This document shows positions 18,671-40,535 of a stretch of 64,000 nucleotides of DNA, in pieces. Every line of letters begins with the position of its first letter. The stretch's first letter is position 1. The notes beneath the pieces are model-generated. The model was not told the origin of the DNA. It saw nothing but the letters and a program-made list of their open reading frames with translations, and ran no database searches. Origin of the DNA: Escherichia phage ALITA; sequence record PP359570; one strand, written 5' to 3'. The position numbers and the translations under genes are program-made.

Positions 18671-18684
18671 AAGAGGAAAAGAAG

Positions 18685-18861: not shown

Positions 18862-18872
18862 GGAGTTGTGTA

Positions 18873-19325: not shown

Positions 19326-19328
19326 TAT

Positions 19329-19837: not shown

Positions 19838-19846
19838 GGAGAAGCC

Positions 19847-20426: not shown

Positions 20427-20435
20427 GGAGGGTTT

Positions 20436-20660: not shown

Positions 20661-20661
20661 T

Positions 20662-20829: not shown

Positions 20830-20838
20830 GGAGAGGTC

Positions 20839-21423: not shown

Positions 21424-21495
21424 TGAAAGAGATTATTTTGAAGGGCATCGTTACGAAGTTCCAGAATACTGTCTTTGGATAAAACGGGAGGAATA

Positions 21496-21663
21496 ATGCA
21501 AACATTTTTTATCGACAAGTTCAATAAAAGTATGAACACGTGGATGGCAACATTCACTATGCAATTTGCGTCATTTAAAGAAGCTCAAGAATGGTGCGAT
21601 CAACACAAGGATTTTGATTTTTACTATCAAGTTAATGCAAACCTTTCTCCAGAGGAGAAATAA
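21496..21663 (+). CDS. hypothetical small protein (55 aa)
   Basis: Track ORF 21475..21663 trimmed to ATG after gggaggaataa. Confidence 0.4.
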   Translation: MQTFFIDKFNKSMNTWMATFTMQFASFKEAQEWCDQHKDFDFYYQVNANLSPEEK

Positions 21664-21664
21664 T

Positions 21665-22009
21665 ATGTTGGCTGATATTGAAATCCTTATGTACCGACAA
21701 GGTATGATCAAAATGTGGCTAGATTCTTTTAGCAACATATACTGTACAGTACGATCAGCAGACGAGCGTAAAACGCTTATTTTATCTGCTATTGTTGATA
21801 AACAACGTTTCTTCAAAGAAATTTTGCAAACAGGCTTCTCCGATGCAGGAGTAGAGATTGCAACGCTTAGTCTTGGAGTGCTGTCTTACTTGGAATCCGT
21901 TGTTTTATATGTCTTCTCTTTAGAGGAAGACTTGCAATTTGAAGCATTAAAACTTATCCTAGATGCTGCAATTGACATAGAACAAAATCGAATTGATTCT
22001 TTTGAATAA
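21665..22009 (+). CDS. hypothetical protein (114 aa)
   Basis: Track ORF 21566..22009 trimmed to ATG after ggagaaataat (MLADIEIL...). Confidence 0.45.
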   Translation: MLADIEILMYRQGMIKMWLDSFSNIYCTVRSADERKTLILSAIVDKQRFFKEILQTGFSDAGVEIATLSLGVLSYLESVVLYVFSLEEDLQFEALKLILDAAIDIEQNRIDSFE

Positions 22010-22024
22010 AATAAGGAGAAAACT

Positions 22025-22483
22025 ATGAAAGAGGTTAAACATTATCCACATGGTCGTAGTTTTGTAGCTGTATGGCATGTTCCTGCTCGTAATGAACTAT
22101 TTTGTGCATCTTTTCATTACAAAGATGGACAATATTTCACCTATGACGAAACGATGGATGATTTTATCCCAGAGTGCGATCATGGGTATACACCAATGTT
22201 CTTTAAACGTATGAAAGCTCGTTTCTTCGTTACAGATGTTGATGGTGAACCTACTTGGCACATCGAAGAAGATTGGCAAGATTCTGTGGATATTAAAGAA
22301 GCCCCAGAATGGGCTACACTACTGGTACACGTCAAAACCCCTACTCTTGACGTTATGGCGTGGGTTAATCATGATGATACCCATTACCAATACATAAATG
22401 GTAGCACAGAGATTTCTGGTGAGATTATTGGTCGTTGGAAGCCTACGAATCAGGTTGCTATTGTCGGGTATAAGACAGTATAA
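22025..22483 (+). CDS. hypothetical protein (152 aa)
   Basis: ORF-track ORF; aaggagaaaact SD. Confidence 0.55.
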   Translation: MKEVKHYPHGRSFVAVWHVPARNELFCASFHYKDGQYFTYDETMDDFIPECDHGYTPMFFKRMKARFFVTDVDGEPTWHIEEDWQDSVDIKEAPEWATLLVHVKTPTLDVMAWVNHDDTHYQYINGSTEISGEIIGRWKPTNQVAIVGYKTV

Positions 22484-22484
22484 T

Positions 22485-22679
22485 ATGAAAAATAATGTAG
22501 ATTGGGATGATTTATCCGATTTTGAAAAATGGTTCTTAGGTAGTGGTTGTTATGCAGATGGGGATCTCGAAAGAGATCCTTCTGGAAACTACACTATGCC
22601 ATTAACCCAAGGTTTTTATGAGTGCTGGTGCGCAGCACAAAACAACGTACTGATTAAGGAGACAACACAATGCAATTAA
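22485..22679 (+). CDS. hypothetical protein (64 aa)
   Basis: Track ORF 22398..22679 trimmed to ATG overlapping previous stop. Confidence 0.4.
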   Translation: MKNNVDWDDLSDFEKWFLGSGCYADGDLERDPSGNYTMPLTQGFYECWCAAQNNVLIKETTQCN

Positions 22680-22909
22680 ACATCGGACAACCAATTTTTG
22701 ATGCAGATACTGGTCAATATGCAGTGATTGTTGCTCGTATGAGCGGTGATGACCTTATTGTTTCAGAACTACTCGGATCAGATCCGCAACTGCGCGTAGT
22801 ATGTGACCTATATCTTCGAGACGAAAGTGATCGCATTGCACTGAAAGAAGATGGTATGCTCTACTATACCTGGACTAGAGATCCTGGGGTAACGGAGGTA
22901 GAGGTATAA
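22670..22909 (+). CDS. hypothetical protein (79 aa)
   Basis: ORF-track ORF; aaggagacaaca SD. Confidence 0.45.
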   Translation: MQLNIGQPIFDADTGQYAVIVARMSGDDLIVSELLGSDPQLRVVCDLYLRDESDRIALKEDGMLYYTWTRDPGVTEVEV

Positions 22910-23208
22910 TGGTAAGGAATAGGGGTTTACATAAAAGAAGACACCTTACTTACTGGCATCGTAAAGTACATGAACCTGTATCAAAGAAAGAATGGCAATA
23001 TCTGCCTTATGGGAAGGAGCGAAGAAAGTATCTGTTAGCTCACTTAAGGGTACATGGTTCTCTTCCTGTTAACAGTAAGTGGCAATTGCAAACAGCTTAT
23101 GACGAAGATATGAAATATCTGTTAAAGAGAGGCATTATTTGCCTTGTTAAGATAGGACGATGGAAATCTCGTCAATCTTATATCGTACTTAAACAGGAGA
23201 AACGATGA
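22909..23208 (+). CDS. hypothetical basic protein (99 aa)
   Basis: ORF-track ORF; K/R-rich, possible nucleic-acid binding (inference). Confidence 0.45.
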   Translation: MVRNRGLHKRRHLTYWHRKVHEPVSKKEWQYLPYGKERRKYLLAHLRVHGSLPVNSKWQLQTAYDEDMKYLLKRGIICLVKIGRWKSRQSYIVLKQEKR

Positions 23209-23456
23209 ATATCAAAGATGTTGTAGCATACGTAGAAGATGAAGTTAAAAACCATACAAGTTTACTGAAAGTAATGGTTGTGGTTAAAGATGGTATTGGA
23301 CAAGTAAACGTACAACATGTCTTATCTGACACTGTATATAATGTGTTTGAATGTAAAGAAACACCTCATGGAGTACGTGTGGTTTATATTGATAACAATT
23401 TCAAAGAATGTGTGAGACATACCTTAGAAAATGAACTAAGGATCACAATCTTATGA
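23205..23456 (+). CDS. hypothetical protein (83 aa)
   Basis: ORF-track ORF; acaggagaaacg SD. Confidence 0.5.
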   Translation: MNIKDVVAYVEDEVKNHTSLLKVMVVVKDGIGQVNVQHVLSDTVYNVFECKETPHGVRVVYIDNNFKECVRHTLENELRITIL

Positions 23457-23626
23457 GTTATTATGTTGTACCTTATGCCAATAAGTGGAGAGTAAGAGAA
23501 ACTTGTTTTCTATTCTCCTGGTGGGCTACGTTCGGAGATGGTTGTGGAAATGATACAGGAAAGCCTGTAGAGTACGACACAAAAGAAGAATGTGAACAGT
23601 GGATAAAATTAACACAAAGATGTTGA
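23453..23626 (+). CDS. small Cys-containing protein (57 aa)
   Basis: Below track cutoff; ATGA overlap with previous stop; codon-counted. Confidence 0.35.
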   Translation: MSYYVVPYANKWRVRETCFLFSWWATFGDGCGNDTGKPVEYDTKEECEQWIKLTQRC

Positions 23627-23679
23627 CACGATCTTAACTTCTTGTTAGTATCAATGTGTACTAACGATAAGGAGGGTTT

Positions 23680-23904
23680 ATGAAGTCTGTAAACAAGTTG
23701 CAACAATTTTTGTTATCAACAGCAATCTTTTTGCTTTTGTTAATTGGTATTCTGTATGGTGCATCTAACTTATACAATCTACATAATGATGTAGAACAGA
23801 ATAAAGAGAAGTGCATCATTCTAAAACACAAGAAACAAGCAGAAGATTTCTTAAAGAATAAGTGTTACAACTACATTGATTATGAGGAGACAAACAATGA
23901 TTAA
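23680..23904 (+). CDS. small single-TM protein, paralog of 20208..20426 (74 aa)
   Basis: Hydrophobic N-term then KEKCIILKHKKQAEDFL; aaggaggg SD. Confidence 0.5.
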   Translation: MKSVNKLQQFLLSTAIFLLLLIGILYGASNLYNLHNDVEQNKEKCIILKHKKQAEDFLKNKCYNYIDYEETNND

Positions 23905-24139
23905 AGAATTAGGTATGCGAGTATACAGTGAGTGGACTCCAAGCAATGGCCCAGGAGTTGTTGCAGCTAAATGTATCAATGGTCGTATTGAGTACCTGGA
24001 AGGGTATGAAGATAATGAAGAGTTAGTAGATTATGCTAAATCTTTTATTGAAGATGATACAGACTTTATTGTATTATATGATACAGGAGAGTTAGAGTAT
24101 GGATATGATGGAGATGGGGATATCTTTGAACTTCAATAA
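23897..24139 (+). CDS. hypothetical acidic protein (80 aa)
   Basis: Track ORF 23876..24139 trimmed to ATG after gaggag. Confidence 0.45.
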   Translation: MIKELGMRVYSEWTPSNGPGVVAAKCINGRIEYLEGYEDNEELVDYAKSFIEDDTDFIVLYDTGELEYGYDGDGDIFELQ

Positions 24140-24159
24140 GAGTAGTAAGTAAGGTATAA

Positions 24160-24240
24160 AGAGTATATAGTTAGTTATAGAGTTAGTAACATTACATATA
24201 CTCTTTCCATGTATAACATGGAATATTCTCTACCTCGCTA
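24160..24240. promoter_or_regulatory. intergenic inverted repeats (candidate operator/promoter region)
   Basis: aaagagtatat ... atatactcttt 11-bp inverted repeat and TCCATGT-ata-ACATGGA palindrome; approx. Confidence 0.3.
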
Positions 24241-27825: not shown

Positions 27826-27830
27826 CACAT

Positions 27831-27857
27831 AAACCCGCTTCGGCGGGTTTTCTTGTA
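27831..27857 (+). terminator. rho-independent terminator, UUCG-tetraloop family
   Basis: aaacccgcTTCGgcgggttttcttgtat, same element as at 2872; approx. Confidence 0.65.
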
Positions 27858-28297: not shown

Positions 28298-28555
28298 TTA
28301 AGAATGCATAAAATCTTCTTCAGGGCAGGTTGAGAGATAAGAGATGCACGTTGGGACAACAACAACATTATCTTTAAGGTTTGCAACCAAGCCTTTTGTA
28401 ATTCCAGCCACTGCCCCGTTAATATCTGCTTGACGGATACCGAAACCTTGTTGTGCGGATAGATAACAAAATCCCTCACCTTTCTGTTGATTATTATTGA
28501 AGTAATAAACGTAGTGCATCATAAAATGGTCTTTAACGATTTGTTCTGTGGTCAT
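28298..28555 (-). CDS. hypothetical protein (85 aa)
   Basis: ORF-track ORF, last gene of - strand block. Confidence 0.45.
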   Translation of the reverse strand: MTTEQIVKDHFMMHYVYYFNNNQQKGEGFCYLSAQQGFGIRQADINGAVAGITKGLVANLKDNVVVVPTCISYLSTCPEEDFMHS

Positions 28556-28567
28556 AATATTCTCCTA

Positions 28568-28592
28568 TAAGAAAAGGGGCTTTCGCCCCCTT
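28568..28592 (-). terminator. GC hairpin with GAAA tetraloop (terminator family of - block)
   Basis: aaggggcTTTCgcccctt on + strand reads GGGGCGAAAGCCCC + T-run on - strand; approx. Confidence 0.5.
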
Positions 28593-28599
28593 GGTCAAG

Positions 28600-29412
28600 T
28601 TACTTAGTCAAATGATCTTCTATCATTTTTATGAAAGCAGGATTGCTAAAAGCCTCTGCTGCCTTTTCTCTATAAACAAAGACTCCTCTATCTTCGTAAA
28701 GAAGAGTTTCTTCGTAATTAATTCCTGGGTTAACAACAATCATTTTTGTACCCATATTAAGTGCAGGGAATAATTCCCAATTAAAATTGATAACTTGGTT
28801 TGAACATCCTACTACAACAACCAAATCTTGCATGGTCAAAGTATCAAACAAGTGAGCCATATCTGCATACAAAGGTGCAGCCTCACCAAAAAATACAACA
28901 TTAGGCTTCACCCAGTTATAATCATCTATGTTTATACTATTGTAACCAATGTCTACCAGTGTTTTGTAATCTCCAGGATGCATACGGTAAACTACTTCAG
29001 GAAGATACCCGTGCACGTGAATAACAGAATCCCTGTCCACACCTGCTCGCTCTAATAGATCATCAACGTTTGTTGTCAAGTTTACTACTTGGTTAGGATA
29101 TTCCTTAAACCACTTTGCTATTTGAATATGTGCAGCATTAGGTTGTACATCTTTAAGCTCAACACGTCTTTTGTTATAAAATTCGTGTGTTTTGGCATAC
29201 AAATCCATACCGTTCTCGTCTACACCACCGACCACTGGAAGATCTGGAGATGTTCTCACACGATAACCTGCTTGGAAAGCTCCAATATCGCAGACCTCTT
29301 CTAAATCATATTCTTCCCACAAGGCACGACCACTATCTGTGTCTGTTCGGAACGTTCGAATCCCACTGTCTGCACTTAAACCTGCGCCACTAACAAAAAT
29401 TACTCTTCGCAT
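28600..29412 (-). CDS. Sir2-family (sirtuin-like) NAD-binding protein
   Basis: N-terminal FVSGAGLSADSGIRTFR matches GAG(I/L)S...GI..FR; IHVHG catalytic-His context; no obvious CxxC...CxxC Zn module. Confidence 0.65.
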   Translation of the reverse strand: MRRVIFVSGAGLSADSGIRTFRTDTDSGRALWEEYDLEEVCDIGAFQAGYRVRTSPDLPVVGGVDENGMDLYAKTHEFYNKRRVELKDVQPNAAHIQIAKWFKEYPNQVVNLTTNVDDLLERAGVDRDSVIHVHGYLPEVVYRMHPGDYKTLVDIGYNSINIDDYNWVKPNVVFFGEAAPLYADMAHLFDTLTMQDLVVVVGCSNQVINFNWELFPALNMGTKMIVVNPGINYEETLLYEDRGVFVYREKAAEAFSNPAFIKMIEDHLTK

Positions 29413-29969
29413 TCAATATCCTCTTCGTAATCATCATCCCAAGAAGATGCGTCGTAACGCTCTTCCTCTTCGAAATCCCAATTAATTTCTACTCCAAAAT
29501 CTAAAAACAATTTAACAATGTTTTCTGTAGAGTAGTATTTATCATAAGCGTTAGCTAGTTCCCAATACTTGTCACTCAATTTTTTATATTTAGGATCATT
29601 ATAATCATAATCTACTTTATAACCATAATCATACATCTCTTGTTCAGCTTTAAGCATAGCTTCTGGTGTAAGAAGATTAGGGAACGGACGATTTCTTTCT
29701 TTTAACTTAGAAACAATCCAGTTTGCAACATTTGCCACTTCACCATCTTGATTATCACCTAAACAACTTGCATAATCTCCATCTTCGTAAGTGCCTAAAT
29801 CCCCACAGACCACATGTACAATAGATGAATACGATCCACACGTTTCACAATCTGAAAAAGTGTCTACTGTTGTAATATCAATAGATAAAACTGGTAAAGC
29901 CATAGCTTCTTTCACACAAGCCTCCTCATATAATAACATATCATCAAAACCCATATATCCTCCACACAA
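29400..29969 (-). CDS. hypothetical acidic protein (189 aa)
   Basis: ORF-track ORF; D/E/Y-rich C-terminus; overlaps Sir2 start by 13 nt (operon). Confidence 0.5.
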   Translation of the reverse strand: MCGGYMGFDDMLLYEEACVKEAMALPVLSIDITTVDTFSDCETCGSYSSIVHVVCGDLGTYEDGDYASCLGDNQDGEVANVANWIVSKLKERNRPFPNLLTPEAMLKAEQEMYDYGYKVDYDYNDPKYKKLSDKYWELANAYDKYYSTENIVKLFLDFGVEINWDFEEEERYDASSWDDDYEEDIECEE

Positions 29970-29995
29970 ATAAAGCCCCTGATTGGGGCTTTGGT
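29970..29995 (-). terminator. GC hairpin downstream of 30009..30617
   Basis: aaagcccctgattggggcttt; approx. Confidence 0.4.
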
Positions 29996-30008
29996 TAAGT
30001 TTTACGGA

Positions 30009-30617
30009 TTATACCAGACTTTTAAGGTACTTGTCAAGGGCTTCTTGATCACCTTGACAAACATAGCAACGGAAGTCTTGAGCAGAAGGTTCTTTGTCCT
30101 CGTCCCAATCCCAATAAACAGTACCTTTATAACGTGAGCCTGGGAACTCGAAATATGCTGTATGAGTAATATGATGTGGGCCACCCCAAAACTGTATAAA
30201 AGTAAATTGAGGATACGCTGCTTTAACTGTATTTTCAAACCAAGTTTTACGATCTAATGCTTCGTTTATAAAATAAGCATGGCGTTCCATTTCATCCCAG
30301 TTTTTCCAAACGCATTTTTCATCCAGAGAAAAAACAAAATCCTCGCTGTTGAATTCATCTGTATCTTCCAAAATATCATAATCATGTGCACTAGGTATCC
30401 ACCATCCAGCTTCTAATAGTGCTTTCACGGGTACAAAACCTTTTTCAGCATATTGATCAAATTCTTTTACTCTACGTACAGTGCAGTATTCATCTTCACC
30501 ACCAATGTCCAGCAGACAAGCACCTTTGCGTCTTGCTGCAAGACCATGTGTATCAAAAACTACAACACTACCTTCACCATCTTCACGATCTACTTGATAT
30601 GCAACTTTTTGAGTCAT
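30009..30617 (-). CDS. hypothetical protein (202 aa)
   Basis: ORF-track ORF; no recognisable motif. Confidence 0.5.
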   Translation of the reverse strand: MTQKVAYQVDREDGEGSVVVFDTHGLAARRKGACLLDIGGEDEYCTVRRVKEFDQYAEKGFVPVKALLEAGWWIPSAHDYDILEDTDEFNSEDFVFSLDEKCVWKNWDEMERHAYFINEALDRKTWFENTVKAAYPQFTFIQFWGGPHHITHTAYFEFPGSRYKGTVYWDWDEDKEPSAQDFRCYVCQGDQEALDKYLKSLV

Positions 30618-30740
30618 ATTACCCCCAATGTATATGGGAAATTAACCAAAAGATAAATTCCCAAAAACACCAACCAAGAAAAGTTAATGGAATTATAAAA
30701 GCTATCAGAGCAGTCTTCCAGCCTTTCCACAATGTTTCCA

Positions 30741-31730
30741 CTATTCCTCCATACATTTAAGAATATGTGCAATGACAGGTATAGTCCAACCGTTACCTAA
30801 CATCTTATATGCTTGTGTGTTACTACTCACTTTAAAGTAGTCATCTGGCACACCTTGCAAACGGCAACACTCTTTAACGGTTAACTTTCTATAATGTACG
30901 CCTTCACTCAATTTTTCAAAAGCATCTAAATATCTTCCAGGTGGAATGTAAGCTAATAGTACGTCTTTCGGCACAGTCGTGAGGCAACGAGTTTTTTCAC
31001 TGTCCTGAACTTCCAAACAATGTACCAAACGATCAGTTTTAGATGTACTACGTTTGCCATTTTCATTAATTCTACGCCCATATATTGCTGCTGGATAAAA
31101 AACCAGTTGTCTGCGACTCTTTTCAAAATACTGTTCTATATTACCACCTTTGGCATAATTTGCATCTATGCAATAAGCCTTATCTCTGTCTACAATACTA
31201 TCATCTTCAATGATATCTTGCAACACTTCATTGGTAATATCCCAGGGTTTTATTTCCCAGTTGCACCAGTATAAACGTTGTCTATTCTGTGCCGTGAAAT
31301 CTGCGGAGTTAATGAATACGGGATCAACACCTAAGTAACTTGTGATCACGTTTTCCCACTCCACTTTCATCTTAACGTTTTCAAGCATGAACTTAACATT
31401 AGGGTTAAACTTTTTAATATGTTCAAGAATCTCAACATATTCGAAGAATAGCTTAGATCGCGGATCTTGAAAGTTCAAACCCTTACCAGAAGAAGAGAAG
31501 CCTTGACACGGACTACCACCTAACAAAAGATCAATTTCTCCCCACGGGATATCCCATTCTCTCCATTTTGTAACATCACCTAACTGAATAATATCTGGAA
31601 AATTTGCTTGGCTTTCAGCTATGGCGAATTTGTCTAATTCTGAAGCATAATATGTATCTACGTCAATACCTGCACTTTTTAGCGCAAGCATTCCTCCTGA
31701 CATGCCATCAAAAAGACTTAAAACTTTCAT
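30741..31730 (-). CDS. DNA (cytosine-5)-methyltransferase
   Basis: Motif I LSLFDGMSGG, motif IV GGSPCQGFS (PCQ), motif VI MLENV. Confidence 0.85.
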   Translation of the reverse strand: MKVLSLFDGMSGGMLALKSAGIDVDTYYASELDKFAIAESQANFPDIIQLGDVTKWREWDIPWGEIDLLLGGSPCQGFSSSGKGLNFQDPRSKLFFEYVEILEHIKKFNPNVKFMLENVKMKVEWENVITSYLGVDPVFINSADFTAQNRQRLYWCNWEIKPWDITNEVLQDIIEDDSIVDRDKAYCIDANYAKGGNIEQYFEKSRRQLVFYPAAIYGRRINENGKRSTSKTDRLVHCLEVQDSEKTRCLTTVPKDVLLAYIPPGRYLDAFEKLSEGVHYRKLTVKECCRLQGVPDDYFKVSSNTQAYKMLGNGWTIPVIAHILKCMEE

Positions 31731-31732
31731 TA

Positions 31733-32143
31733 TTACTTCTTCTCCTTAACACTAGCTGGTAATTCTGCCTTGAGGCAGAAGTTTAAACGGTAAGCCTCAT
31801 TCTCATTTAAAAGTACAGATTCACACGATAACCAGAACAAGAGATCCTCAATACCAGGGCTGTTAAGCCAACAGTGCAGAAGAGAATGTTGTTCTATATC
31901 AATGTAATTTAGTAACAAGGCTTGTAAGGCGTAACTAGTTCCTGTCGTTTTTGCTTTTTCAAGGATGATATTGTGTTTACTAACAACTTTCTTCCTAAGA
32001 CCAAACCATTTATTAACAACAACAGTCTCTTCTTGTAGTTGTTTTCTTATTTTCTCACATTCTTTAACTACAATCTGCATCTTATCCACTGCTGATTGAA
32101 GTTGTTCTTTTGTTGGGTTTACAAAATAATCACTATAATACAT
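31733..32143 (-). CDS. hypothetical protein (136 aa)
   Basis: ORF-track ORF; stop 3 nt upstream of methyltransferase start. Confidence 0.5.
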   Translation of the reverse strand: MYYSDYFVNPTKEQLQSAVDKMQIVVKECEKIRKQLQEETVVVNKWFGLRKKVVSKHNIILEKAKTTGTSYALQALLLNYIDIEQHSLLHCWLNSPGIEDLLFWLSCESVLLNENEAYRLNFCLKAELPASVKEKK

Positions 32144-32197
32144 GCTAAACTCCTCTTCTGTTTTTCTGTAGTTTATTCGAAAAAACTGGTGTTGTCA

Positions 32198-32223
32198 ACA
32201 AAAAACCCGCCGAAGCGGGTTTA
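32198..32223 (-). terminator. rho-independent terminator, UUCG-tetraloop family (reverse orientation)
   Basis: + strand aaaaaacccgccgaagcgggttt = reverse complement of the 2872/27831 element; downstream of 32226..32483; approx. Confidence 0.6.
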
Positions 32224-32225
32224 TA

Positions 32226-32483
32226 TTATTCTACAGGAACTTCTTCACCAAGAGAAACTTCTAAACGGAATGCTTTACTTTCAATACATTCACTACCTTT
32301 TAAGAAATCGAATTGCACTATAGACTGACTTAATAGAATAGATAGAATCACATCGCAATCTTCACTAGGGGCTAGATGTTTGTATTCTTCCTTCAAGGTA
32401 ACATCATAAAAACATAAGTCCCCTACTCCTAGTTCATCCCATCCTTCCCACGCATCTACAAAGTTAAACTCTAAACCTTTCAT
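32226..32483 (-). CDS. hypothetical protein (85 aa)
   Basis: ORF-track ORF. Confidence 0.45.
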   Translation of the reverse strand: MKGLEFNFVDAWEGWDELGVGDLCFYDVTLKEEYKHLAPSEDCDVILSILLSQSIVQFDFLKGSECIESKAFRLEVSLGEEVPVE

Positions 32484-33004
32484 ACAATCTCCTCGTAATT
32501 GTTATTGTGTTTTACTGTCTCAACATACAATAAAGATTCCATCTGTAATACATTACCAGAAATAATAAACCCATAAGCCATTTCAGATGTGTCTATATCA
32601 TATGCCCCGTCTTCCGGTTTAGCAAAGTGTAAAACTATTTCATCTGGGTTTTCTTCATCCCATAGTTTAGAAATTTTCCGAACCAGAATGTTAGCTAAAA
32701 TAGTTGACATTCGGGATAAAGCTGTATCCTCATATCTTTTAAAACCTAGCCAATAGAGGTTAAGAATTTCTACTTCTTCTTGTGTTAAGTTTTTGTCTAA
32801 AGTAATCAGATCTGTAGAGCACGGCGTTTTTGTTGAACCTACTGTTACAAAACCTGGAGTGTTATGAAAAACAATCTTAACTTTATCACGTATAAAGTTT
32901 AAACCTTGTGCCTCAACTATATATTGTATTGTAGGTACAATATCGTTTGTTACATCAATAAAACTATCTTTAATGACGCTTATATTATTTCTGGACAATA
33001 CCAT
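32480..33004 (-). CDS. hypothetical protein (174 aa)
   Basis: ORF-track ORF; 4-nt overlap with downstream gene. Confidence 0.5.
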   Translation of the reverse strand: MVLSRNNISVIKDSFIDVTNDIVPTIQYIVEAQGLNFIRDKVKIVFHNTPGFVTVGSTKTPCSTDLITLDKNLTQEEVEILNLYWLGFKRYEDTALSRMSTILANILVRKISKLWDEENPDEIVLHFAKPEDGAYDIDTSEMAYGFIISGNVLQMESLLYVETVKHNNNYEEIV

Positions 33005-33563
33005 TCTCCTCTAAGATAGGCTTAATAAATTCGAAAATTTGTTTTTTACTTTTACCTCGAATATTAAAACAAGGAACATTAAACTTTTTAGCCAACATCC
33101 AAGCTGTTCTTGTACCACCTAAAGGATCTCCATTTTTATCTGTATTTGCACAAGCCAAAAGAAAACAAGATGGTTTTGGATTCTCAAGATCTCTTCCAAG
33201 AACTTGGTGGATATTTCTTTGATGTAATTTTTTAGCACCTTGAGATAATCTGTCCCAAGCTGGATGCAATTCTTTTGCATATTGCAAGGTTAAAGCATAG
33301 TTTACACTATCTGGTCTGTCAAGAACAATAACCTCTCCCTCTATTTCATTACCTTTAAACGAGAGCCAAGGGATGTATATTTCTTTCTTTGTATTGTTCC
33401 CACTATCATATACCCCGCATTCAAATGCGGAATCTGCACCTTCTGCTTTACCAGATCGCAAAATGAACCATGTAGATAGCCATTTTGCAACAGATACCAT
33501 AGTATCCCATTCTTCGTCTGTAATATCTCTGCTACCAACACCTGTGTAGAATAAATCGCTCAT
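32985..33563 (-). CDS. DprA/SLOG-family Rossmann-fold protein (192 aa)
   Basis: Track ORF trimmed to MSDLFYTGVGSRD (ggagaa SD); GVGSR, GKAEGADSAFE, HQRN..Q, GGTRTAW..A....PCF resemble DprA/Smf blocks. Confidence 0.4.
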   Translation of the reverse strand: MSDLFYTGVGSRDITDEEWDTMVSVAKWLSTWFILRSGKAEGADSAFECGVYDSGNNTKKEIYIPWLSFKGNEIEGEVIVLDRPDSVNYALTLQYAKELHPAWDRLSQGAKKLHQRNIHQVLGRDLENPKPSCFLLACANTDKNGDPLGGTRTAWMLAKKFNVPCFNIRGKSKKQIFEFIKPILEENGIVQK

Positions 33564-33573
33564 GGTTTTCTCC

Positions 33574-33894
33574 TTAACAAGTAATATTGGGAGTAACAAT
33601 TGGATTAACAATTGGAGTGATAGGGTACGTAAACCAAGGGCTTCCAATTTCCCAAGGATTATAAGGTCTACGAGGATCAAATGGAGGAGTTACTTCAGGC
33701 TTTTTCCAAATCTCCGCTAGTTGTTTCTTCCATTTATCCCTTGCTGTCTCATTATCTTCATCCAACTGTTCATCATTATCTTTTATTTCTGGTTTTGGAA
33801 ATAAAAGCTCTTTGACTAACTCAACATCTTCCGTCTCAATAGTAGTTTCTTTCGTAAGTTCTCCTACTGTTTCTTTAATTGTGATTTTATACAT
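33574..33894 (-). CDS. hypothetical protein (106 aa)
   Basis: ORF-track ORF; Pro/Trp-rich C-terminal half. Confidence 0.45.
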   Translation of the reverse strand: MYKITIKETVGELTKETTIETEDVELVKELLFPKPEIKDNDEQLDEDNETARDKWKKQLAEIWKKPEVTPPFDPRRPYNPWEIGSPWFTYPITPIVNPIVTPNITC

Positions 33895-34640
33895 TAGTCC
33901 TCCTCTAAAGTAGAATAAAATTGTAACGTATTTGAATCATCAAAATATGCAAAGGTTAAATTACCATTGAAGCAAGATCCTGTGTCCATATATACCCTAT
34001 TACTGCTAATCATAGGTTTAGGAACATAAGAATGCCCGTGAAATACATAATCTACTCCTGAAACCCTAGGAAGAAGAATCCCTTCAAGTGCGCAATCTAT
34101 CATATCACGATCCCACATTAAAGATTCTGTGAATCGAGAAACTTGCTCTTTATTCATATTCAAACAAAATGGCAAAACTTCTGTCACTGGTAAATGTTCC
34201 AAAACTGAAGGATACCCACCGTGAATAAAGCCTAGTTTCATATTACGATAATTGACAACAAGTACAACAGGTAAATCTTCTAGCATCAAAGCAAGAGCAG
34301 TTGCACCCTCTTCTCCACACTCGTCTAGAACTGTATGGCCTCCGTTCTGAAACCAACATTCGTAATATCGTCTATCACCTTCTAGCAACCCTTTAATCAT
34401 CATATCTTCATGGTTCCCACGAATACCATAACGATTTAGCTTTCTGGTGAATTCAACAACACAACGAAAATTCTGCTTGCCGCGATCTGTAAGATCTCCT
34501 AAAGATACAACAACATCTTGATCTCGGATACCTAAAGTATTAACACCTTTCTGGTACAAATCAAAGCAACCATGTAAATCACCAATAATAAACAGGTCTT
34601 GATCATCTTTTACACTAATTTCTTGATATACTAGCATCAA
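33894..34640 (-). CDS. PPP-family Ser/Thr protein phosphatase (lambda-phosphatase-like)
   Basis: GDLHG, GDLTDRG and GNHE signature motifs in order. Confidence 0.8.
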   Translation of the reverse strand: MMLVYQEISVKDDQDLFIIGDLHGCFDLYQKGVNTLGIRDQDVVVSLGDLTDRGKQNFRCVVEFTRKLNRYGIRGNHEDMMIKGLLEGDRRYYECWFQNGGHTVLDECGEEGATALALMLEDLPVVLVVNYRNMKLGFIHGGYPSVLEHLPVTEVLPFCLNMNKEQVSRFTESLMWDRDMIDCALEGILLPRVSGVDYVFHGHSYVPKPMISSNRVYMDTGSCFNGNLTFAYFDDSNTLQFYSTLEED

Positions 34641-34963
34641 CTCTCCTCAAAATCCATAAGTATAAAGATATTAACTTTACCTTCTATATTATGTTCTACA
34701 ACAAGATCTGCAAATTCTTTGTAGGCTTTTTCTTCTATTTGTTCAATGTGAGACGCTACATCTTTGTATATAGCGTCACCATCTACTTTAACAAGGAGGA
34801 ATAGAGATCTTACTTCAATCTCTTTATTTTTACGGGGTAGAAAATCGACGGCTTCTTGTATACGCCAGCCGAGATACCCTGGAGTCCTTTGAATATCCTC
34901 CAAATGACTTTCTAAGATTTCCCTTCCTTTGTCTATTAAAGCCTGTTCTGTCGTTATTTTCAT
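34637..34963 (-). CDS. hypothetical protein (108 aa)
   Basis: ORF-track ORF; 4-nt overlap with phosphatase start. Confidence 0.5.
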   Translation of the reverse strand: MKITTEQALIDKGREILESHLEDIQRTPGYLGWRIQEAVDFLPRKNKEIEVRSLFLLVKVDGDAIYKDVASHIEQIEEKAYKEFADLVVEHNIEGKVNIFILMDFEES

Positions 34964-34973
34964 CCCCTTCTCC

Positions 34974-35546
34974 TTAATGTGTTAATGAAACTGCGTAACT
35001 AAACACAGGTTCAGATATTACATCGGCTACAGTAATAAAAACGTCTTCGTCTTGAGTTGTTTCTACACGACATACAGTTACACCATTCACCACGAATTCA
35101 ACGCAATGTGGAATATCTTCACAAACGAAGGTAGTGTAAGTAACACCCAAAGCATCATACAAAGATTTAACAGTGTTTGCAAGTGCCGCAGTTTCTTCTT
35201 TTTCTGAGACAATGAATGCTGTAACAACAAGATTGTTTGCATAGTTTAGACTGTCCTCTATAGCCAATGATTTACAAGGTAGTAATGCAAAATATTTACC
35301 TGGTTTAATCAGACCTGCTTCCCATTGATTCAAAATTGCTTGGGATGGTTTAGTAATATAAAACAGATTTTCACTTGGGTTATCAATATTACTTCTGGCG
35401 ATACAACGTGAAGGATTATTAATATCAAACACATGATCAAAATCTACACAAACTGGTAAACTGAAAGGTGTGAATTTTTTACCTAATAATCCTACTGCTG
35501 ACAATATGTTTGCTGTGCTTATCTTCCCGTTAAAAGCTAAACGCAT
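34974..35546 (-). CDS. hypothetical protein (190 aa)
   Basis: ORF-track ORF. Confidence 0.5.
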   Translation of the reverse strand: MRLAFNGKISTANILSAVGLLGKKFTPFSLPVCVDFDHVFDINNPSRCIARSNIDNPSENLFYITKPSQAILNQWEAGLIKPGKYFALLPCKSLAIEDSLNYANNLVVTAFIVSEKEETAALANTVKSLYDALGVTYTTFVCEDIPHCVEFVVNGVTVCRVETTQDEDVFITVADVISEPVFSYAVSLTH

Positions 35547-35557
35547 ATTTAACTCCT

Positions 35558-35761
35558 TTAACTAGCAACCGTAACTTCCGAACTTTCTTCTTTCGTACTG
35601 TCTACGATATGCCTGGTGGCAATATACGAGACTTGCCAGTTACCATCTGGTGTAGTCTCAATAAGTACCCTATCTACTTCGAGAAAATGCAAAAATTCAA
35701 CCATCGCTCGCTTCGATAGGAATTGTTTTTTAACAGTCTCCTCAAAAGATTGAACTGCCAT
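35558..35761 (-). CDS. hypothetical protein (67 aa)
   Basis: ORF-track ORF. Confidence 0.4.
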   Translation of the reverse strand: MAVQSFEETVKKQFLSKRAMVEFLHFLEVDRVLIETTPDGNWQVSYIATRHIVDSTKEESSEVTVAS

Positions 35762-35770
35762 GTTTCCTCC

Positions 35771-36433
35771 TTATTTAATATTCAATTTTGCACAAAGACG
35801 TTGTACCGCTTTGGCATCGAACAAACTCCCACGAATAGTTCTCTTTCCTGATTCATTCAGATGTTTTGCAATCGTCATATATGGCGTTTTACAAGCTCTG
35901 TATGCAACTAAAGAATCTTTTAAAGAAAGCGCAAACTCTTTTGAGCGTTTTGCTTCTTCCGTTTTCGTATAATCTGTTCTTTTGTATTTAGGGTTTGCTG
36001 CACCAAGAAGCGTTCCCTTCGCTTTTGCTACTTTAAGGCTCTTCTTAACACGATCAGATATTGCACGAGCCTCTTCTTCTGCCAGAACTGCTAAAATATT
36101 TATTATCATATTTTCAGCGGAGGGCATAGTTGCTATTCGTACATTAATCATCTCTAACAAGGTTGCAACAGAAGCTGTGTTACGTCCAAGACGGTCAACC
36201 TTAGCAACAACAAGTGTAGCACCTGTTTCTTTGCAAAGATTAACAGCTTTTACAAGCTCTCTACGTTGCTTCCAATCGCCTTTACCCGAATAAAACTCTG
36301 CAAAGCTACCTACAATAGTATAATTTTCTTGTGAATCCAGGAAGCGTTGGATATCTGCTTCCTGTGATTCTATACCATACTGGTTGCCTTGTTGTTTCTT
36401 CTTAGAAAGTCGATGATACAGTACAAACTTCAT
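35771..36433 (-). CDS. serine recombinase (resolvase/invertase family)
   Basis: N-terminal YHRLSKKKQ (Y.R.S...Q catalytic-Ser context), VVAKVDRLGRN, C-terminal HTH-like tail. Confidence 0.75.
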   Translation of the reverse strand: MKFVLYHRLSKKKQQGNQYGIESQEADIQRFLDSQENYTIVGSFAEFYSGKGDWKQRRELVKAVNLCKETGATLVVAKVDRLGRNTASVATLLEMINVRIATMPSAENMIINILAVLAEEEARAISDRVKKSLKVAKAKGTLLGAANPKYKRTDYTKTEEAKRSKEFALSLKDSLVAYRACKTPYMTIAKHLNESGKRTIRGSLFDAKAVQRLCAKLNIK

Positions 36434-36490
36434 AATACCCTCCTGTTCTGTTACAGGAAGTATGCACTACCTTAACGTTAAAGTCAACAG

Positions 36491-36706
36491 TTAAGTAGTG
36501 GTAATATCATCTTCTTGAATATCAGGATCAACTTCTGCAAAGATAGCTTCTACAGGAATTTCTTCACCTGCTATTCTAGAAAGAAGCACTGAACCAATAG
36601 CTTTTGCGTGTTCTTCGGATTCCGCATAAACATTAGTCCCTGTGTCTTTTTTCTTAGTTTCGTTAAAATATACCAGATAGTAATTGTATGCCATTATTCT
36701 TCCCAA
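36491..36706 (-). CDS. hypothetical protein (71 aa)
   Basis: ORF-track ORF. Confidence 0.4.
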   Translation of the reverse strand: MGRIMAYNYYLVYFNETKKKDTGTNVYAESEEHAKAIGSVLLSRIAGEEIPVEAIFAEVDPDIQEDDITTT

Positions 36707-36945
36707 TCGTTGTTACGAGCATTTTCAAGAACCTTGACAACTTCTGCATACTCTACAGCTAAACCAGCACACACTTCAGCTTGTTTTGCAATTGCTTGTT
36801 TAAAGAACATAGCGATTGCAACACTCTGTGTTGTGTGAATGTTATCTGCTTTAGTTGATACGTGAAGATCAAAATCTTCTTCATCAAAGGGGAGTTCCAT
36901 AGTAACAATAAATTTCTCGGTCATAAAAATGCTCCTCTTAAACAA
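36694..36945 (-). CDS. hypothetical protein (83 aa)
   Basis: ORF-track ORF. Confidence 0.4.
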   Translation of the reverse strand: MFKRSIFMTEKFIVTMELPFDEEDFDLHVSTKADNIHTTQSVAIAMFFKQAIAKQAEVCAGLAVEYAEVVKVLENARNNDWEE

Positions 36946-37447
36946 AATAGAAAGGTTGAGTTAAACCCAGCCTGTTTTTTGGGTCGTAGACGTACCAAGC
37001 ATATGCTGTCTTATCAGTACCACCTGCAACAAAAGATGGTCGTTCAGAAAGAACAATCAAATTTGTTGGTGGATTCTGTTTATGGAACTCCCTTCGTTTA
37101 ATAGACTCTAGGAACCCAAGACGCAACAAGTATATGCAAACGTCTGCTTCTTTTAAGCTCTTTTGCAAGAACTCAAGTGCAAGTTTGAATGGGGGATTTG
37201 TGATTATAATATCCGGCTTAGTATGCCATTCGTGGTTAAAATAATCTTTCCCTTCTTCTAACTCACAATATTCTGATCCTTCTGGAAAATGTTGATAAAT
37301 TGCAGCAGCAGCACCTTTACACGGTTCTGCAAAAATAAAACCTTCTTCTTTAAGGTTATTAAAATCTATTACACTAAATAATGCATTTATACATTTTTGT
37401 GGAGTAGGATAGTAATCAGTTGGTGGACGATCATACTTATTTGCCAC
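36938..37447 (-). CDS. small phage-type DNA N6-adenine methyltransferase
   Basis: YYPTP, FAEPCKGAAAA (AdoMet-binding-like) and DIIITNPPF (NPPF motif IV). Confidence 0.65.
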   Translation of the reverse strand: MANKYDRPPTDYYPTPQKCINALFSVIDFNNLKEEGFIFAEPCKGAAAAIYQHFPEGSEYCELEEGKDYFNHEWHTKPDIIITNPPFKLALEFLQKSLKEADVCIYLLRLGFLESIKRREFHKQNPPTNLIVLSERPSFVAGGTDKTAYAWYVYDPKNRLGLTQPFYFV

Positions 37448-37865
37448 TACTTAAAATCTCCTCTTTTGTGATTTCAGGGTCTTCTTCAAAAACCATAATA
37501 TCTCTTAAGAACGTTAATTCTTCCATAGATACTGGTATTGTATCTTCTTCTGTTTTTCGTTTACATAAATCGTCAAGAAAGTTTTTAAAGTTTTCTGACA
37601 AATCGTAAAATTTCAACAGTTGATAATCACAGGAGGAGATCCTATCTAGTTCTAACATTCTTTCTAAGATATTTTCTGTGTTGCCATACAGCACACGAAC
37701 TTCTCCGAAAGGGTTGACTGAATATTGTGAAGTTCTGAACCATCCCTTTTTAGATACAGTGTAACGCTGTTCTGCTAAACTTTCAATAAAATTTTTAGCT
37801 CTTTTACAGTTTTGTTCTAAAGAGTAGTAGGCTTTTTCTACAAAGGTTACAGGTACTGGTAACAT
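37437..37865 (-). CDS. hypothetical protein (142 aa)
   Basis: ORF-track ORF; aggagg SD. Confidence 0.5.
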   Translation of the reverse strand: MLPVPVTFVEKAYYSLEQNCKRAKNFIESLAEQRYTVSKKGWFRTSQYSVNPFGEVRVLYGNTENILERMLELDRISSCDYQLLKFYDLSENFKNFLDDLCKRKTEEDTIPVSMEELTFLRDIMVFEEDPEITKEEILSSGK

Positions 37866-37876
37866 ATCTCCTCCTA

Positions 37877-37900
37877 ATAAACCCCCTCAAGGGGGTTTGT
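37877..37900 (-). terminator. GC hairpin downstream of HslV-like gene
   Basis: aaaccccctcaagggggttt; approx. Confidence 0.45.
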
Positions 37901-37906
37901 GTTAGA

Positions 37907-38560
37907 TTAATTATCAGAGGATACTTTATCAAGTTTTTCAGAGACTGTCAATACTTTTTCTTGTGATTCTTTCATTTCTGCTAAAATACTTTCAGCTTCA
38001 TCACTATCAGGATCACCAGTCAACAGCATACTAATTAGTTGCTCCTTGCTGAAGTTCAGAATATCTTCCGCTGTTAGCTCCAGTTGTTCTTCGATCTCTT
38101 CAACAAAAGTTTCACCCCCTGAAAAAGCATCTCGTAGTTTTGCAACTTCCATTGCTTCTTCTGGGGTTGCCCCAGCGTCTAAAGCTGCTAAAGCAAAATC
38201 TGCCCCACTACCAACAGCATAGTAATCTTCAGTTAAAGGATATGCTCGCGTTGGATTATTACCCTCGTGCATATAAATTTTACCGTCTGGGTGAACAACC
38301 AATGCCACAAACTCTTCATCTTCTTTATCAGGATCGGACTGGATCACCAAACCTGGGATTGTCTCTTGTGCTGCTTGGCATTGTAAGTTTTGTTCGAACC
38401 AAGAAAAGAAAGTCAGGATAGAAGACAGACGTCCTGCACCACCAACAAGGTAGTCCCCAATTTTACGCACTTTCTTGAAATTTAAAGTGTCTACACGACT
38501 ACCTACTGTTACTTTACCGTCAGACAGAATTTTGTTACGTGTTGCAATAATTGTTGTCAT
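37907..38560 (-). CDS. HslV-like Ntn-hydrolase (proteasome beta-type) peptidase with acidic C-terminal extension
   Basis: MTTIIATRN (Thr right after Met), KKVRKIGDYLVGGAG, YYAVGSGADFALAALDAG parallel E. coli HslV MTTIVSVRR / KKVRRL..AGFAG / AIGSGG.YAQAAA; extra ~50 aa D/E-rich tail. Confidence 0.6.
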   Translation of the reverse strand: MTTIIATRNKILSDGKVTVGSRVDTLNFKKVRKIGDYLVGGAGRLSSILTFFSWFEQNLQCQAAQETIPGLVIQSDPDKEDEEFVALVVHPDGKIYMHEGNNPTRAYPLTEDYYAVGSGADFALAALDAGATPEEAMEVAKLRDAFSGGETFVEEIEEQLELTAEDILNFSKEQLISMLLTGDPDSDEAESILAEMKESQEKVLTVSEKLDKVSSDN

Positions 38561-39051
38561 TGTACTTCCTCCTGTAGTGTTTTAAGGACTGCTTTACCAC
38601 CGCTTACATATTTACGGAGGTAATCAATAGCTCTTAGTGTTTCTTTATCCACAAGAATTTTATTAGTTCTTGTTAGTGGATGATTTAGTAAATCACTGCA
38701 ATTTCTTACTAACATAGATTTCTTGTGAAAAATACTGCTAAGAAAAAGAAGTTTAGAATCTTCTTCATCAATCAGGAGTAATTCTGAATTAGACCCAGCT
38801 ACATTTATTATACACTCAAACAAGCCTTCTTGACTATCAGATAATTCCTGGTAATATTTAGTTAGCCAATCCTCGCCTTTTAACCAACTAAAAAACATCT
38901 GAACTTTTTGTAAAGTTGTCATGTTCTCTAAACGAAGAGATATTTCTTTTTCAATCTTGTCAATATAAATCTGTCTAAACTCATTCGGCTTAACTAAGCC
39001 AGCTTGATAGCATTCATCAATACCATTGCGATCAATCTCAATTAGCGTCAT
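38557..39051 (-). CDS. hypothetical protein (164 aa)
   Basis: ORF-track ORF; 4-nt overlap with HslV-like start. Confidence 0.5.
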   Translation of the reverse strand: MTLIEIDRNGIDECYQAGLVKPNEFRQIYIDKIEKEISLRLENMTTLQKVQMFFSWLKGEDWLTKYYQELSDSQEGLFECIINVAGSNSELLLIDEEDSKLLFLSSIFHKKSMLVRNCSDLLNHPLTRTNKILVDKETLRAIDYLRKYVSGGKAVLKTLQEEVQ

Positions 39052-39087
39052 TTAACCTCCATAACAGGCATCCTTGCCTTGTAATTA

Positions 39088-39840
39088 TTAGTATACTTCC
39101 GTGATGAACTGAGACAAACGGGAACGTTGGTTATCAGCAGTTGTCATTTCAACATAACCAATAAAATCCACAATAGCTTCCCTTTCTCCTTCTTCATTAA
39201 TAGGAACAACACGATCTAACAAATCACCTAACCCGTTAGCTCTTCGTTTAATTGCATATGTTTGATTAACATCGCCCATAATGACAATACGTGTATTAAG
39301 ACCTGCTCGCTCAAGGAGAAGTTTTACTGTATTTGGTGACATAAGTTGAACTTCATCAATAAGAATAATGCTGTTATCCCACGTAGCACCTAGTGCATAG
39401 TTTGGAATATTAAGTTCAATTTTGCCACTTGCAATATCGTTTTCCAATTTATTTGCAGTCATAAACTGTTGGAAAATTCTTTTAGTTGATTCGTAGTGTG
39501 CTGCTAGTTTATCAGTCTTATCTCCAGATAAGAAACCAATTTGATCATCACCTACTTCTGTCGGGTTTTTAAGGAAAATCAACTTTCTGAAGTCACCAGC
39601 TTTAAGCATTTGCAATGCTTTCCATAGTGCTGTTGTCGTTTTTCCTGTTCCTGCTGGGGCATTAACAATGGTTAAATCATTCCAAACCATGCTTCTTACA
39701 ATAGCTTCTTGATTCCCAACAGGGGTAAATTCATCAAGACGGTAATCATCATTTCCTACTGCTTTAGCCGCATAACGACTGGCACGTTTGTCATCATTGG
39801 CTGCTGATTGACGACGAGCCTTTGCGGTTTTATTTCCCAT
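39088..39840 (-). CDS. phoH: PhoH-like ATPase
   Basis: Walker A PAGTGKTT, LIFLKNPTE...GFLSGDK, Walker B ILIDEVQ. Confidence 0.85.
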   Translation of the reverse strand: MGNKTAKARRQSAANDDKRASRYAAKAVGNDDYRLDEFTPVGNQEAIVRSMVWNDLTIVNAPAGTGKTTTALWKALQMLKAGDFRKLIFLKNPTEVGDDQIGFLSGDKTDKLAAHYESTKRIFQQFMTANKLENDIASGKIELNIPNYALGATWDNSIILIDEVQLMSPNTVKLLLERAGLNTRIVIMGDVNQTYAIKRRANGLGDLLDRVVPINEEGEREAIVDFIGYVEMTTADNQRSRLSQFITEVY

Positions 39841-39854
39841 GTTTGCACTCCTTA

Positions 39855-39878
39855 TAAAAGGGGCTTTCGCCCCTTTGT
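39855..39878 (-). terminator. GC hairpin with GAAA tetraloop downstream of lysozyme gene
   Basis: aaaaggggcTTTCgcccctttg; approx. Confidence 0.5.
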
Positions 39879-40379
39879 TTAGTTATAAGCGTCTAATGTT
39901 CCAGTTTTAAGTACCTGAATTACACGCTCTGCGCGATTAGGCGTTTGGCGATACCATTTACTTTTACGTAAATTTATAGAGGCTTGAGTATAATATGAAT
40001 TACTCACTAAAGTCAAGCTATTTTTGAAAGATTCTGCACCTTTCAATCCCATTTGAAATACCATATTGATAATAGCCATTTTACGATTAGGACTTACTTT
40101 ATCGTAAATAGGAGATAATATGGTGCTTGAATGGATCTGTTGTATCGCTTTCTTTACGTCACTCTCAAAGATTTTTCTAGCTTCCGCTTCAGTAATAACC
40201 CCATTGGTTTTTCTACCTACTAAGTTATCAAGAATGCGTATAGCTTCTGCTTTATCTTTGCGTTTTGTCAGAAGGTGTCCAATACCAACTGTCCAATACC
40301 CTTCGGTATCAGGATACACAGTTAGCTTTAGTCCTTCATCAAAACGTAACATATCAAACACATCAACTACTTTAGCCAT
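39879..40379 (-). CDS. e: T4-type lysozyme (endolysin)
   Basis: DMLRFDEGLKLTVYPDTEGYWTVGIGHLLTK and INMVFQMG...WYRQTPNRAERVI closely parallel T4 e. Confidence 0.95.
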   Translation of the reverse strand: MAKVVDVFDMLRFDEGLKLTVYPDTEGYWTVGIGHLLTKRKDKAEAIRILDNLVGRKTNGVITEAEARKIFESDVKKAIQQIHSSTILSPIYDKVSPNRKMAIINMVFQMGLKGAESFKNSLTLVSNSYYTQASINLRKSKWYRQTPNRAERVIQVLKTGTLDAYN

Positions 40380-40391
40380 GTTTTCCTTATA

Positions 40392-40535
40392 TCAGTCGCC
40401 CTCCCCATGATCTAACTCTTGAAACAGTAGGTGTTCAGGAGACATTTCACGTTTAGGCTTCGTCTTTTTAGTTTGGGACTTAAGCTCTGTTGCCAAAGCA
40501 CGAGAAAAGATCTTACGTTTCTGTTTACCTTTCAT
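40392..40535 (-). CDS. small basic protein (47 aa)
   Basis: Below track cutoff; MKGKQKRKIFSRALATELKSQTKKTKPKRE...; codon-counted from verified neighbours. Confidence 0.35.
   Translation of the reverse strand: MKGKQKRKIFSRALATELKSQTKKTKPKREMSPEHLLFQELDHGEGD

Follow-up and report, generated by a model that had tools for sequence, protein, structure and literature searches.

Phages of the phi92 type are described as strictly lytic and without lysogeny genes (PMC12210895; PMC8594841). The annotation of phi92 and of its relative EmilieFrey already includes a DNA methyltransferase, a DprA-like protein, a NinI-like phosphatase, a DNA invertase/resolvase and a further DNA methyltransferase. The present study analyzes the corresponding genes in a stretch of 64,000 nucleotides, here called the window, from Escherichia phage ALITA (sequence record PP359570). 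The region under study, 30741-37447, corresponds to phi92 gp043-gp056 (NC_023693, 14463-21169), and its five enzymes, a C5-cytosine DNA methyltransferase, a DprA-like protein, a PPP phosphatase, a small serine recombinase and a minimal methyltransferase with an NPPF motif, have gp043, gp047, gp049, gp053 and gp056 as their phi92 counterparts. A sequence-only reading of the window had called these five genes, and both the calls and their coordinates were borne out by domain and profile matches far beyond chance. The same reading had seen in the region an island that might be a mobile cassette or an invertible segment, and here the comparisons point elsewhere. The best explanation, and one we consider likely, is that the genes form a conserved leftward early/middle accessory block of a phi92-like phage, vertically inherited, with the enzyme roles proposed below. 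Annotation of the genes dates back to the phi92 genome paper, and dozens of coliphage genomes that are candidates for therapy carry them unchanged.

A megablast search with window positions 28500-40500 against GenBank phage records matched 110 records, and in 52 of these one alignment spanned at least 80% of the query. All of the 40 records listed aligned with 100% of the query as one piece, at 97.3–99.1% identity, and therefore the window, on nucleotide identity, belongs to the virulent E. coli myophages of phi92 type in the genus Justusliebigvirus (subfamily Stephanstirmvirinae). Identity was 98.4% with phi92 (phi92 coordinates 12218-24221) and 98.7% with EmilieFrey, which together with PaulScherrer represents the BASEL phages among the single-piece matches. 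Across phi92 and more than 50 Justusliebigvirus genomes, the block has the same genes, order, strand and spacing at 97–99% nucleotide identity, and differs by scattered point differences only. Four records (MG065639, MG065645, MG065656 and MG065689) that are labelled “Campylobacter phage” with C. jejuni as host were 97.9% identical to the coliphage block; these are probably mislabelled or contaminant genomes.

Patterns detected within the block are consistent with vertical inheritance. From 28600 to beyond 40379 all genes are minus-strand genes in tight succession, and their order and orientation are invariant in the genus, with synteny extending to the sister genus Phapecoctavirus. In phAPEC8 and ESCO13 of that genus, the same order is found of Sir2, DprA-like protein, NinI phosphatase, a protein labelled “HisRS”, small methyltransferase, HslV-like protein, PhoH and lysozyme. 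The only differences at the level of the genus were the presence of the C5-methyltransferase, of which the syntenic ESCO13 block has no homolog, and the position of the recombinase, whose Phapecoctavirus homolog is at another locus. Unlike window positions 1-25000, the neighbouring early region, which is mosaic in the same genomes (6–11 alignment pieces with insertions and deletions), the block at 28500-40500 is not mosaic. Guanine-plus-cytosine (GC) content of the region is 0.33–0.38, like the rest of the window, and GC skew fits the surrounding minus-strand block. Direct and inverted repeats were searched for at 27-42 kb and in the whole 64-kb window, and nothing beyond short matches at chance level and terminator hairpins in repeated use was found, with no repeats bracketing any part of the region. 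The C5-methyltransferase also lies in a different terminator-delimited unit from the recombinase and the small methyltransferase, with the border at the hairpin between them (Table 1). Neither deviant composition, nor flanking repeats, nor presence/absence or orientation polymorphism in close relatives, by which an island or a mobile cassette would be recognized, was seen. The island proposal thus fails on composition, flanks, collinearity, the shared order of the sister genus and the separate units, and the mobile cassette on the uninterrupted block in listed genus members, the lack of flanking repeats and an old micro-order of genes around the recombinase. Judged from sequence and gene order, the region is vertically inherited phage backbone and no island, and the readings as mobile cassette or invertible switch are not supported.

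The recombinase, as the gene that had suggested mobility or inversion, deserves separate consideration. It has a Resolvase domain (PF00239, E 8.4e-22), and residues R8, S10, Q24, D80-R81-L82-x-R84, E121 and R128 are invariant or nearly so in 27 homologs of 31–88% identity. The AlphaFold2 (AF2) model, with a predicted local distance difference test (pLDDT) value of 88, consists of a catalytic domain, a long helix E and, at the C terminus, a putative DNA-binding domain of four helices (pLDDT ~90), for which no Pfam helix-turn-helix match was found. Top Foldseek matches were Bxb1 integrase, Sin and gamma-delta resolvase; by sequence the solved resolvases were matched at E ~1e-5 at best, and NCBIfam matches to CcrB, Mpi and YneB were all far below their cutoffs. 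The catalytic fold and the Arg/Ser/Asp-Arg-x-x-Arg residue set are those of Sin, of Tn3 and gamma-delta resolvase and of the Gin/Hin invertases, but the C-terminal domain is longer than in these enzymes and has an IAxxLNxxGxxTxxG motif, which we take to resemble the recombinase domain of large serine recombinases. PF07508 was found in one homolog. Compared with phi92 and EmilieFrey, the gene has 1–3 nucleotide changes and 0 amino-acid changes, the phi92 gp053 protein being 100% identical, and in these comparisons the recombinase looks active and under purifying selection.

An alternative explanation could be that the enzyme is a DNA invertase of the Gin/Hin type that flips a phage segment and thereby switches a phenotype such as host range. 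“DNA invertase” is indeed the label that PHROG and several GenBank records give it, the Mpi invertase model matches it weakly at full length (E 3.3e-8; 33 bits where the cutoff is 272), and phi92-like phages have many receptor-binding proteins (PMC8594841). Inverted repeats of the kind required, however, were found neither near the recombinase nor elsewhere in the 64-kb window, where the long ones were terminator hairpin modules only, and the same search (27-42 kb and the window) gave no res site and no hix/gix-like sites. In all 52 genomes the block is oriented alike, with no inversion or excision form among sequenced relatives, no tail-fibre gene adjoins the recombinase, and its matches in PDB and NCBIfam favour invertases no more than they do Sin/Tn3 resolvases or large serine recombinases. 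An invertase is for these reasons very improbable, and the suggestion of an invertible segment is not sustained. Least credible of all is an integrase left over from a temperate past, or an enzyme that allows lysogeny, even though phrog_95 “integrase” was the second-best PHROG match and one GenBank record calls the gene an integrase: at 220 aa the protein is without the zinc-ribbon and coiled-coil domains of large serine integrases, there is no repressor or att-like context at the gene, and the phages themselves are described as strictly lytic, as noted above. The label “DNA invertase/integrase” on these phages should accordingly be taken as no sign of lysogeny or of a switchable segment. What remains puzzling is the retention, in a lineage of virulent phages, of a serine recombinase that is catalytically intact and under purifying selection.

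Comparison of loci suggests that the recombinase has been in place for a long time. The gene is flanked by 57 nt upstream and 9 nt downstream, and two small open reading frames (ORFs), the gp054 and gp055 homologs, lie between it and the small methyltransferase and hold the same position in loci L005, L006, L007 and L008 of relatives. Klebsiella phage phi1_175008 has a recombinase 78% identical in the same spot as in the window, and three metagenomic relatives, with recombinases 50–60% identical, keep the order small methyltransferase - (gp055) - gp054 - recombinase with the surrounding genes shuffled. Genes rearranged around this micro-order include a phosphatase, a tailspike, dTDP-sugar genes and an HslV-like gene. 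Because the micro-order is kept down to 50% protein identity, the recombinase is to be seen as an old resident and not as a recent arrival; the association with the small methyltransferase could be plain linkage or a functional tie. At the syntenic spot of ESCO13 the recombinase is missing and a 45-nt gap with a terminator hairpin is found instead, while the homolog of ESCO13 (57% identical) is ~9 kb off, on the other strand, among early genes, and the window and ESCO13 recombinase loci share no flanking homology beyond the ORF borders. Since the Klebsiella phage and the metagenomic relatives share the position or micro-order of the window, the window arrangement appears from gene order to be the older one, and Phapecoctavirus to have relocated the gene.

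It could instead be that promoter and recombinase together are a selfish mobile unit of the moron kind that plays no part in phage growth, and that the Phapecoctavirus position reflects its own movement. The recombinase does lie at different loci in the two sister genera, with its own promoter (a consensus match) in each context examined and with only a terminator hairpin left in the ESCO13 gap, and its homologs are patchy in Vibrio, Shewanella and Cellulophaga phages. A unit that moves by itself is nevertheless unlikely, given that homology ends with the ORF itself and includes neither flanks nor terminal repeats, that there is exactly one copy per genome, and that the gene is fixed in ~55 genus members at 99–100% protein identity with no presence/absence polymorphism seen within the genus. 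Its position beside gp054 and the small methyltransferase is, moreover, conserved over deep divergence. Upstream of the gene, a TTGACA-17/18-(C/T)A(T/G)ACT or TAAAAT element is found in L005, L006 and L007 and in the ESCO13 locus L004. A palindrome in the spacer of the window promoter, TTAACGTTAA, was considered as an operator or crossover site and rejected, phi92 having TTAACATTAA in its place; spacers in the Klebsiella phage and the metagenomic relatives are unrelated to TTAACGTTAA.

The C5-cytosine methyltransferase is matched by PF00145 over residues 1-327 of its 329 aa (E 1.5e-43, 149.9 bits against a cutoff of 22) and by TIGR00675 (140.5 bits, cutoff 100.65). Its translation shows FDGMSGG, GGSPCQGFS (PCQ, motif IV), FMLENV (ENV, VI), QNRQR (QxRxR, VIII) and LGNGW (GN, X). 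Among PDB sequences it matches DNMT3A/B, M.HaeIII and M.HhaI at ~1e-23, and specificity is not assignable from these matches, HaeIII, HhaI and DNMT3 scoring alike. Unlike a true counterpart of E. coli Dcm or M.EcoRII (CCWGG), it matches NF007772 at 29.9 bits against a cutoff of 710 and over the C-terminal 50 aa only, and orthology with those enzymes is ruled out. It does resemble orphan phage C5-methyltransferases (phrog_116), such as those of the jumbo coliphages PBECO4 and 121Q, which share the full-length PF00145 domain, have no partner nuclease and are ~51% identical to the window enzyme. The protein is at least 95% identical in 54 phage records, consistent with the ~55 Justusliebigvirus genomes, and the next phage matches are a Pseudoalteromonas siphophage at 52% identity and the jumbo coliphages at ~51%. 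This drop, from at least 95% to 52%, argues for acquisition at the root of the genus, and the comparison points to an accessory gene gained there and, among relatives, present only in Justusliebigvirus. Between the gp041 and gp044 homologs of ESCO13 there are a non-homologous, annotated DNA methyltransferase of 227 aa and several other genes.

The small methyltransferase belongs to a family of proteins of 165–200 aa. PHROG places it with phage DNA methyltransferases (phrog_799 “DNA methyltransferase”, E 7.8e-57), but no match was found in Pfam, NCBIfam or PDB sequence searches (phmmer for the last), and a profile search gave at best E >= 0.02, with EcoRI_methylase (E 0.041, over the NPPF region) as the only Pfam match at E <= 10. 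Within the family, E41-P42-C43 of EPC(K/R)G and T83-N84-P85-P86 of (I/V)TNPPF are invariant and D11-x-Y13-x-T15-P16 nearly so, and the order of a gamma-class enzyme is present, with an S-adenosylmethionine (AdoMet)-binding motif followed by (N/D)PP(Y/F). The AF2 model (pLDDT 90) has M.TaqI and the HsdM subunits of StySJI and EcoKI as top Foldseek matches, followed by the rRNA m6A methyltransferases Dim1, KsgA and Erm, at template modeling (TM) scores of 0.5–0.59; PH1948 scores similarly to M.TaqI and HsdM. These motifs and the predicted fold support assignment as an amino-methyltransferase core, and the name “N6-adenine DNA methyltransferase” is plausible on sequence and model, although the evidence for that name is thin. 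M.TaqI and type I HsdM, as gamma-class N6-adenine DNA methyltransferases, share the motif order and are the best structural matches, but relative to them the protein is less than half the size, is without a target-recognition domain or any extra domain, has no Pfam methyltransferase match by sequence and superposes at a TM score of ~0.5 only. It is 86% identical in Phapecoctavirus ESCO13 and 49–54% identical in distant relatives.

Adenine methylation within EcoRI, EcoRV and EcoP1 sites blocks those enzymes. The sequence-only reading had proposed that two orphan methyltransferases serve anti-restriction by self-methylation, and orphan status does hold for both, in that a Pfam scan of neighbouring genes gave none with a nuclease or other Pfam domain. 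Broad protection, in contrast, is contradicted by published plating data: Maffei et al. report that phi92-like phages, EmilieFrey included, are “exceptionally susceptible” to restriction-modification and without “any effective protection” against it, in tests with six systems, EcoKI, EcoCFT_I, EcoRI, EcoRV, EcoCFT_II and EcoP1_I (PMC8594841). Sensitivity to all six means that self-methylation is no broad shield, and sensitivity to EcoRI, EcoRV and EcoP1_I in particular means that the small methyltransferase is not a promiscuous adenine methylase acting on virion DNA. Any protection by either enzyme must be limited to particular motifs, and restriction resistance is not to be assumed from the presence of two methyltransferases. 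A literature search on methylomes of BASEL or phi92-like phages found nothing relevant.

The same sensitivity would fit another role for the small methyltransferase, as an RNA (rRNA or tRNA) methylase or in regulation or packaging, with the C5-methyltransferase alone handling restriction. Consistent with that are the mere 169 aa without a target-recognition domain, a fold nearly as close to Dim1, KsgA, Erm and PH1948 as to M.TaqI, and the deep conservation of the gene as core in the sister genus, which is unlike typical, swappable anti-restriction methyltransferases. We nonetheless give this possibility little weight, as gamma-class DNA methyltransferases are the top fold matches, the EPCxGxG...NPPF order is that of TaqI/HsdM-type enzymes, and PHROG groups the protein with DNA methyltransferases of phages.

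As to how the conserved block might work, host RNA polymerase would transcribe its units early, and the two orphan methyltransferases would methylate replicating phage DNA at specific short motifs, shielding it from the cognate restriction enzymes only and not from the six systems named above. The phosphatase and the DprA-like protein may serve host takeover and DNA metabolism. The recombinase would carry out a resolvase-type reaction between two copies of a putative site on phage DNA, possibly to resolve or cyclise replicative multimers or terminal repeats, with no segment flipped and no cassette moved; this resolvase-type role is a guess. Several observations count against such an account. 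Promoter calls are consensus matches, of which the region has no excess over shuffled sequence (51, where 43 ± 7 are expected), and the fold of the small methyltransferase does not settle DNA versus RNA as substrate, with rRNA m6A methyltransferases scoring almost like M.TaqI. No recombination site for the recombinase was found in the 64-kb window, and the repeat search covered 64 kb of a genome of ~147 kb; sites could lie in the structural/tail-fibre region or in the host chromosome. A multi-subsite res region of the transposon/plasmid type would have only the short flanks of the gene to occupy, though sites could also lie inside the coding sequence. Searches of the literature on the function of phi92 gp053 or the phAPEC8 homolog, or on serine recombinases in virulent phages, found nothing relevant. 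More tentatively, and with less confidence than the account of the block as a whole, we suggest that the recombinase may be a functional lytic-cycle enzyme in Stephanstirmvirinae and related 130–150-kb myophages, with its own host-type promoter, evolutionarily tied to the small methyltransferase two genes upstream, acting on a defined phage or host DNA site and no mere relic. If true, it would give site-specific recombination a hitherto undescribed role in a strictly virulent phage.

Table 1. Positions of genes, candidate promoters and terminator-like hairpins in and around the region (window coordinates)
Feature	Coordinates	Strand	Basis
Further terminator-like hairpins	29992-29972, 28592-28574	-	terminator scan
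Orphan C5-cytosine DNA methyltransferase (phi92 gp043 homolog)	30741..31730	-	PF00145, TIGR00675, motifs
Putative promoter TTGACA-17-TAAACT, after the hairpin at 32203..32222	32198-32170	-	promoter scan
Intrinsic-terminator hairpin	32203..32222	-	terminator scan
Stand-alone DprA-like (SLOG/Rossmann) protein (phi92 gp047 homolog)	32985..33563	-	phrog_768
NinI/lambda-PP-type PPP serine/threonine phosphatase (gp049 homolog)	33894..34637	-	PF00149, phrog_246, motifs
Small serine recombinase (gp053 homolog)	35771..36433	-	PF00239, conserved residues, model
Sigma-70-like promoter TTGACT-17-CATACT, upstream of recombinase	36459..36487	-	pattern scan, consensus match
Two small ORFs (gp054 and gp055 homologs), between small methyltransferase and recombinase	36491..36945	-	phrog_15892, phrog_14731
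Minimal 169-aa NPPF amino-methyltransferase (gp056 homolog), annotated N6-adenine DNA methyltransferase	36938..37447	-	phrog_799, motifs, fold
Terminator-like hairpin, upstream boundary of the unit 37865 to 32226	37882..37894	-	terminator scan

Of the two remaining enzymes, the phosphatase is a calcineurin-like PPP enzyme of the lambda NinI type. It matches Metallophos (PF00149, E 2.9e-13) and NinI-like phosphatases (phrog_246, E 7e-76), is related to the PrpA/PrpB-type phosphatases of E. coli (E 3e-27 and 8e-24), and carries GDLHG, GDLTDRG and GNHE in its translation, i.e. the GDxHG, GDxxDRG and GNHE motifs. The ORF was called at 33894-34640, but translation probably begins at the ATG at 34637, which corresponds to the start of phi92 gp049. 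For the DprA-like protein the name rests on thin evidence. It matches phrog_768 “DprA-like” (E 7.6e-60), but its own Pfam search and a single-sequence PDB search gave no match; homologs at 40–49% identity carry PF02481, and the family profile finds the DprA structures 3uqz and 3maj as weak matches (E 0.1–0.5), over GSR...SGxAxGxD. G11-S12-R13 and R37-S38-G39-x-A41-x-G43-x-D45 are invariant in the family. The protein, of 192 aa, has a single Rossmann-type domain and is without the SAM and C-terminal winged-helix (DML1) domains of DprA/Smf.

Some neighbouring genes may be mentioned. The 190-aa protein at 34974-35546 is labelled “histidyl tRNA synthetase” or “aminoacyl-tRNA synthetase” by PHROG and several GenBank records, and because Pfam and NCBIfam searches gave no match for it, the synthetase label looks unreliable. 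A Sir2-family protein is found at 28600-29412 and an HslV/proteasome-beta-like peptidase at 37907-38560; a scan of neighbouring genes showed no HslU-type partner for the latter, and the sister genus has kept both. Outside the window, phi92 gp121 (60192-60671) is a small “DNA methyltransferase” gene between the portal and scaffold genes, and the BME3 paper counts four methyltransferase coding sequences in the genus (PMC12210895).

Among the hairpins, one of sequence AAACCCGC-TTCG-GCGGGTTT is reused on both strands of the window, at 2868-2913, 27829-27851 and 32182-32227; the terminator hairpin at 32203..32222 thus has its repeat at 27831-27850 as well as at 2868-2913. The 23-nt copies at 27829-27851 and 32182-32227 are perfectly complementary, each near a TTGACA-type promoter, and the element looks like a standard terminator-promoter module of the phage and not like a recombination site. 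At the left edge of the window, positions 1 to ~598 fell outside the main alignment in about half of the listed relatives, many of which had a second matching place in the record. Several relatives in which these positions are unaligned list an “endonuclease” somewhere among the genes that the 25-kb match covers; an indel of the homing-endonuclease type is a possibility. Many linear GenBank records of the genus (phi92, VEcB, W22, PD06 and BME3) end at window ~17025-17389, where Salmonella phage UAB_1 annotates a “right end direct terminal repeat”, and the bin at 16001-17000 has a GC trough of 0.299 and a reversed GC skew. Window ~16000-17400 is probably a physical genome terminus or terminal-repeat region.

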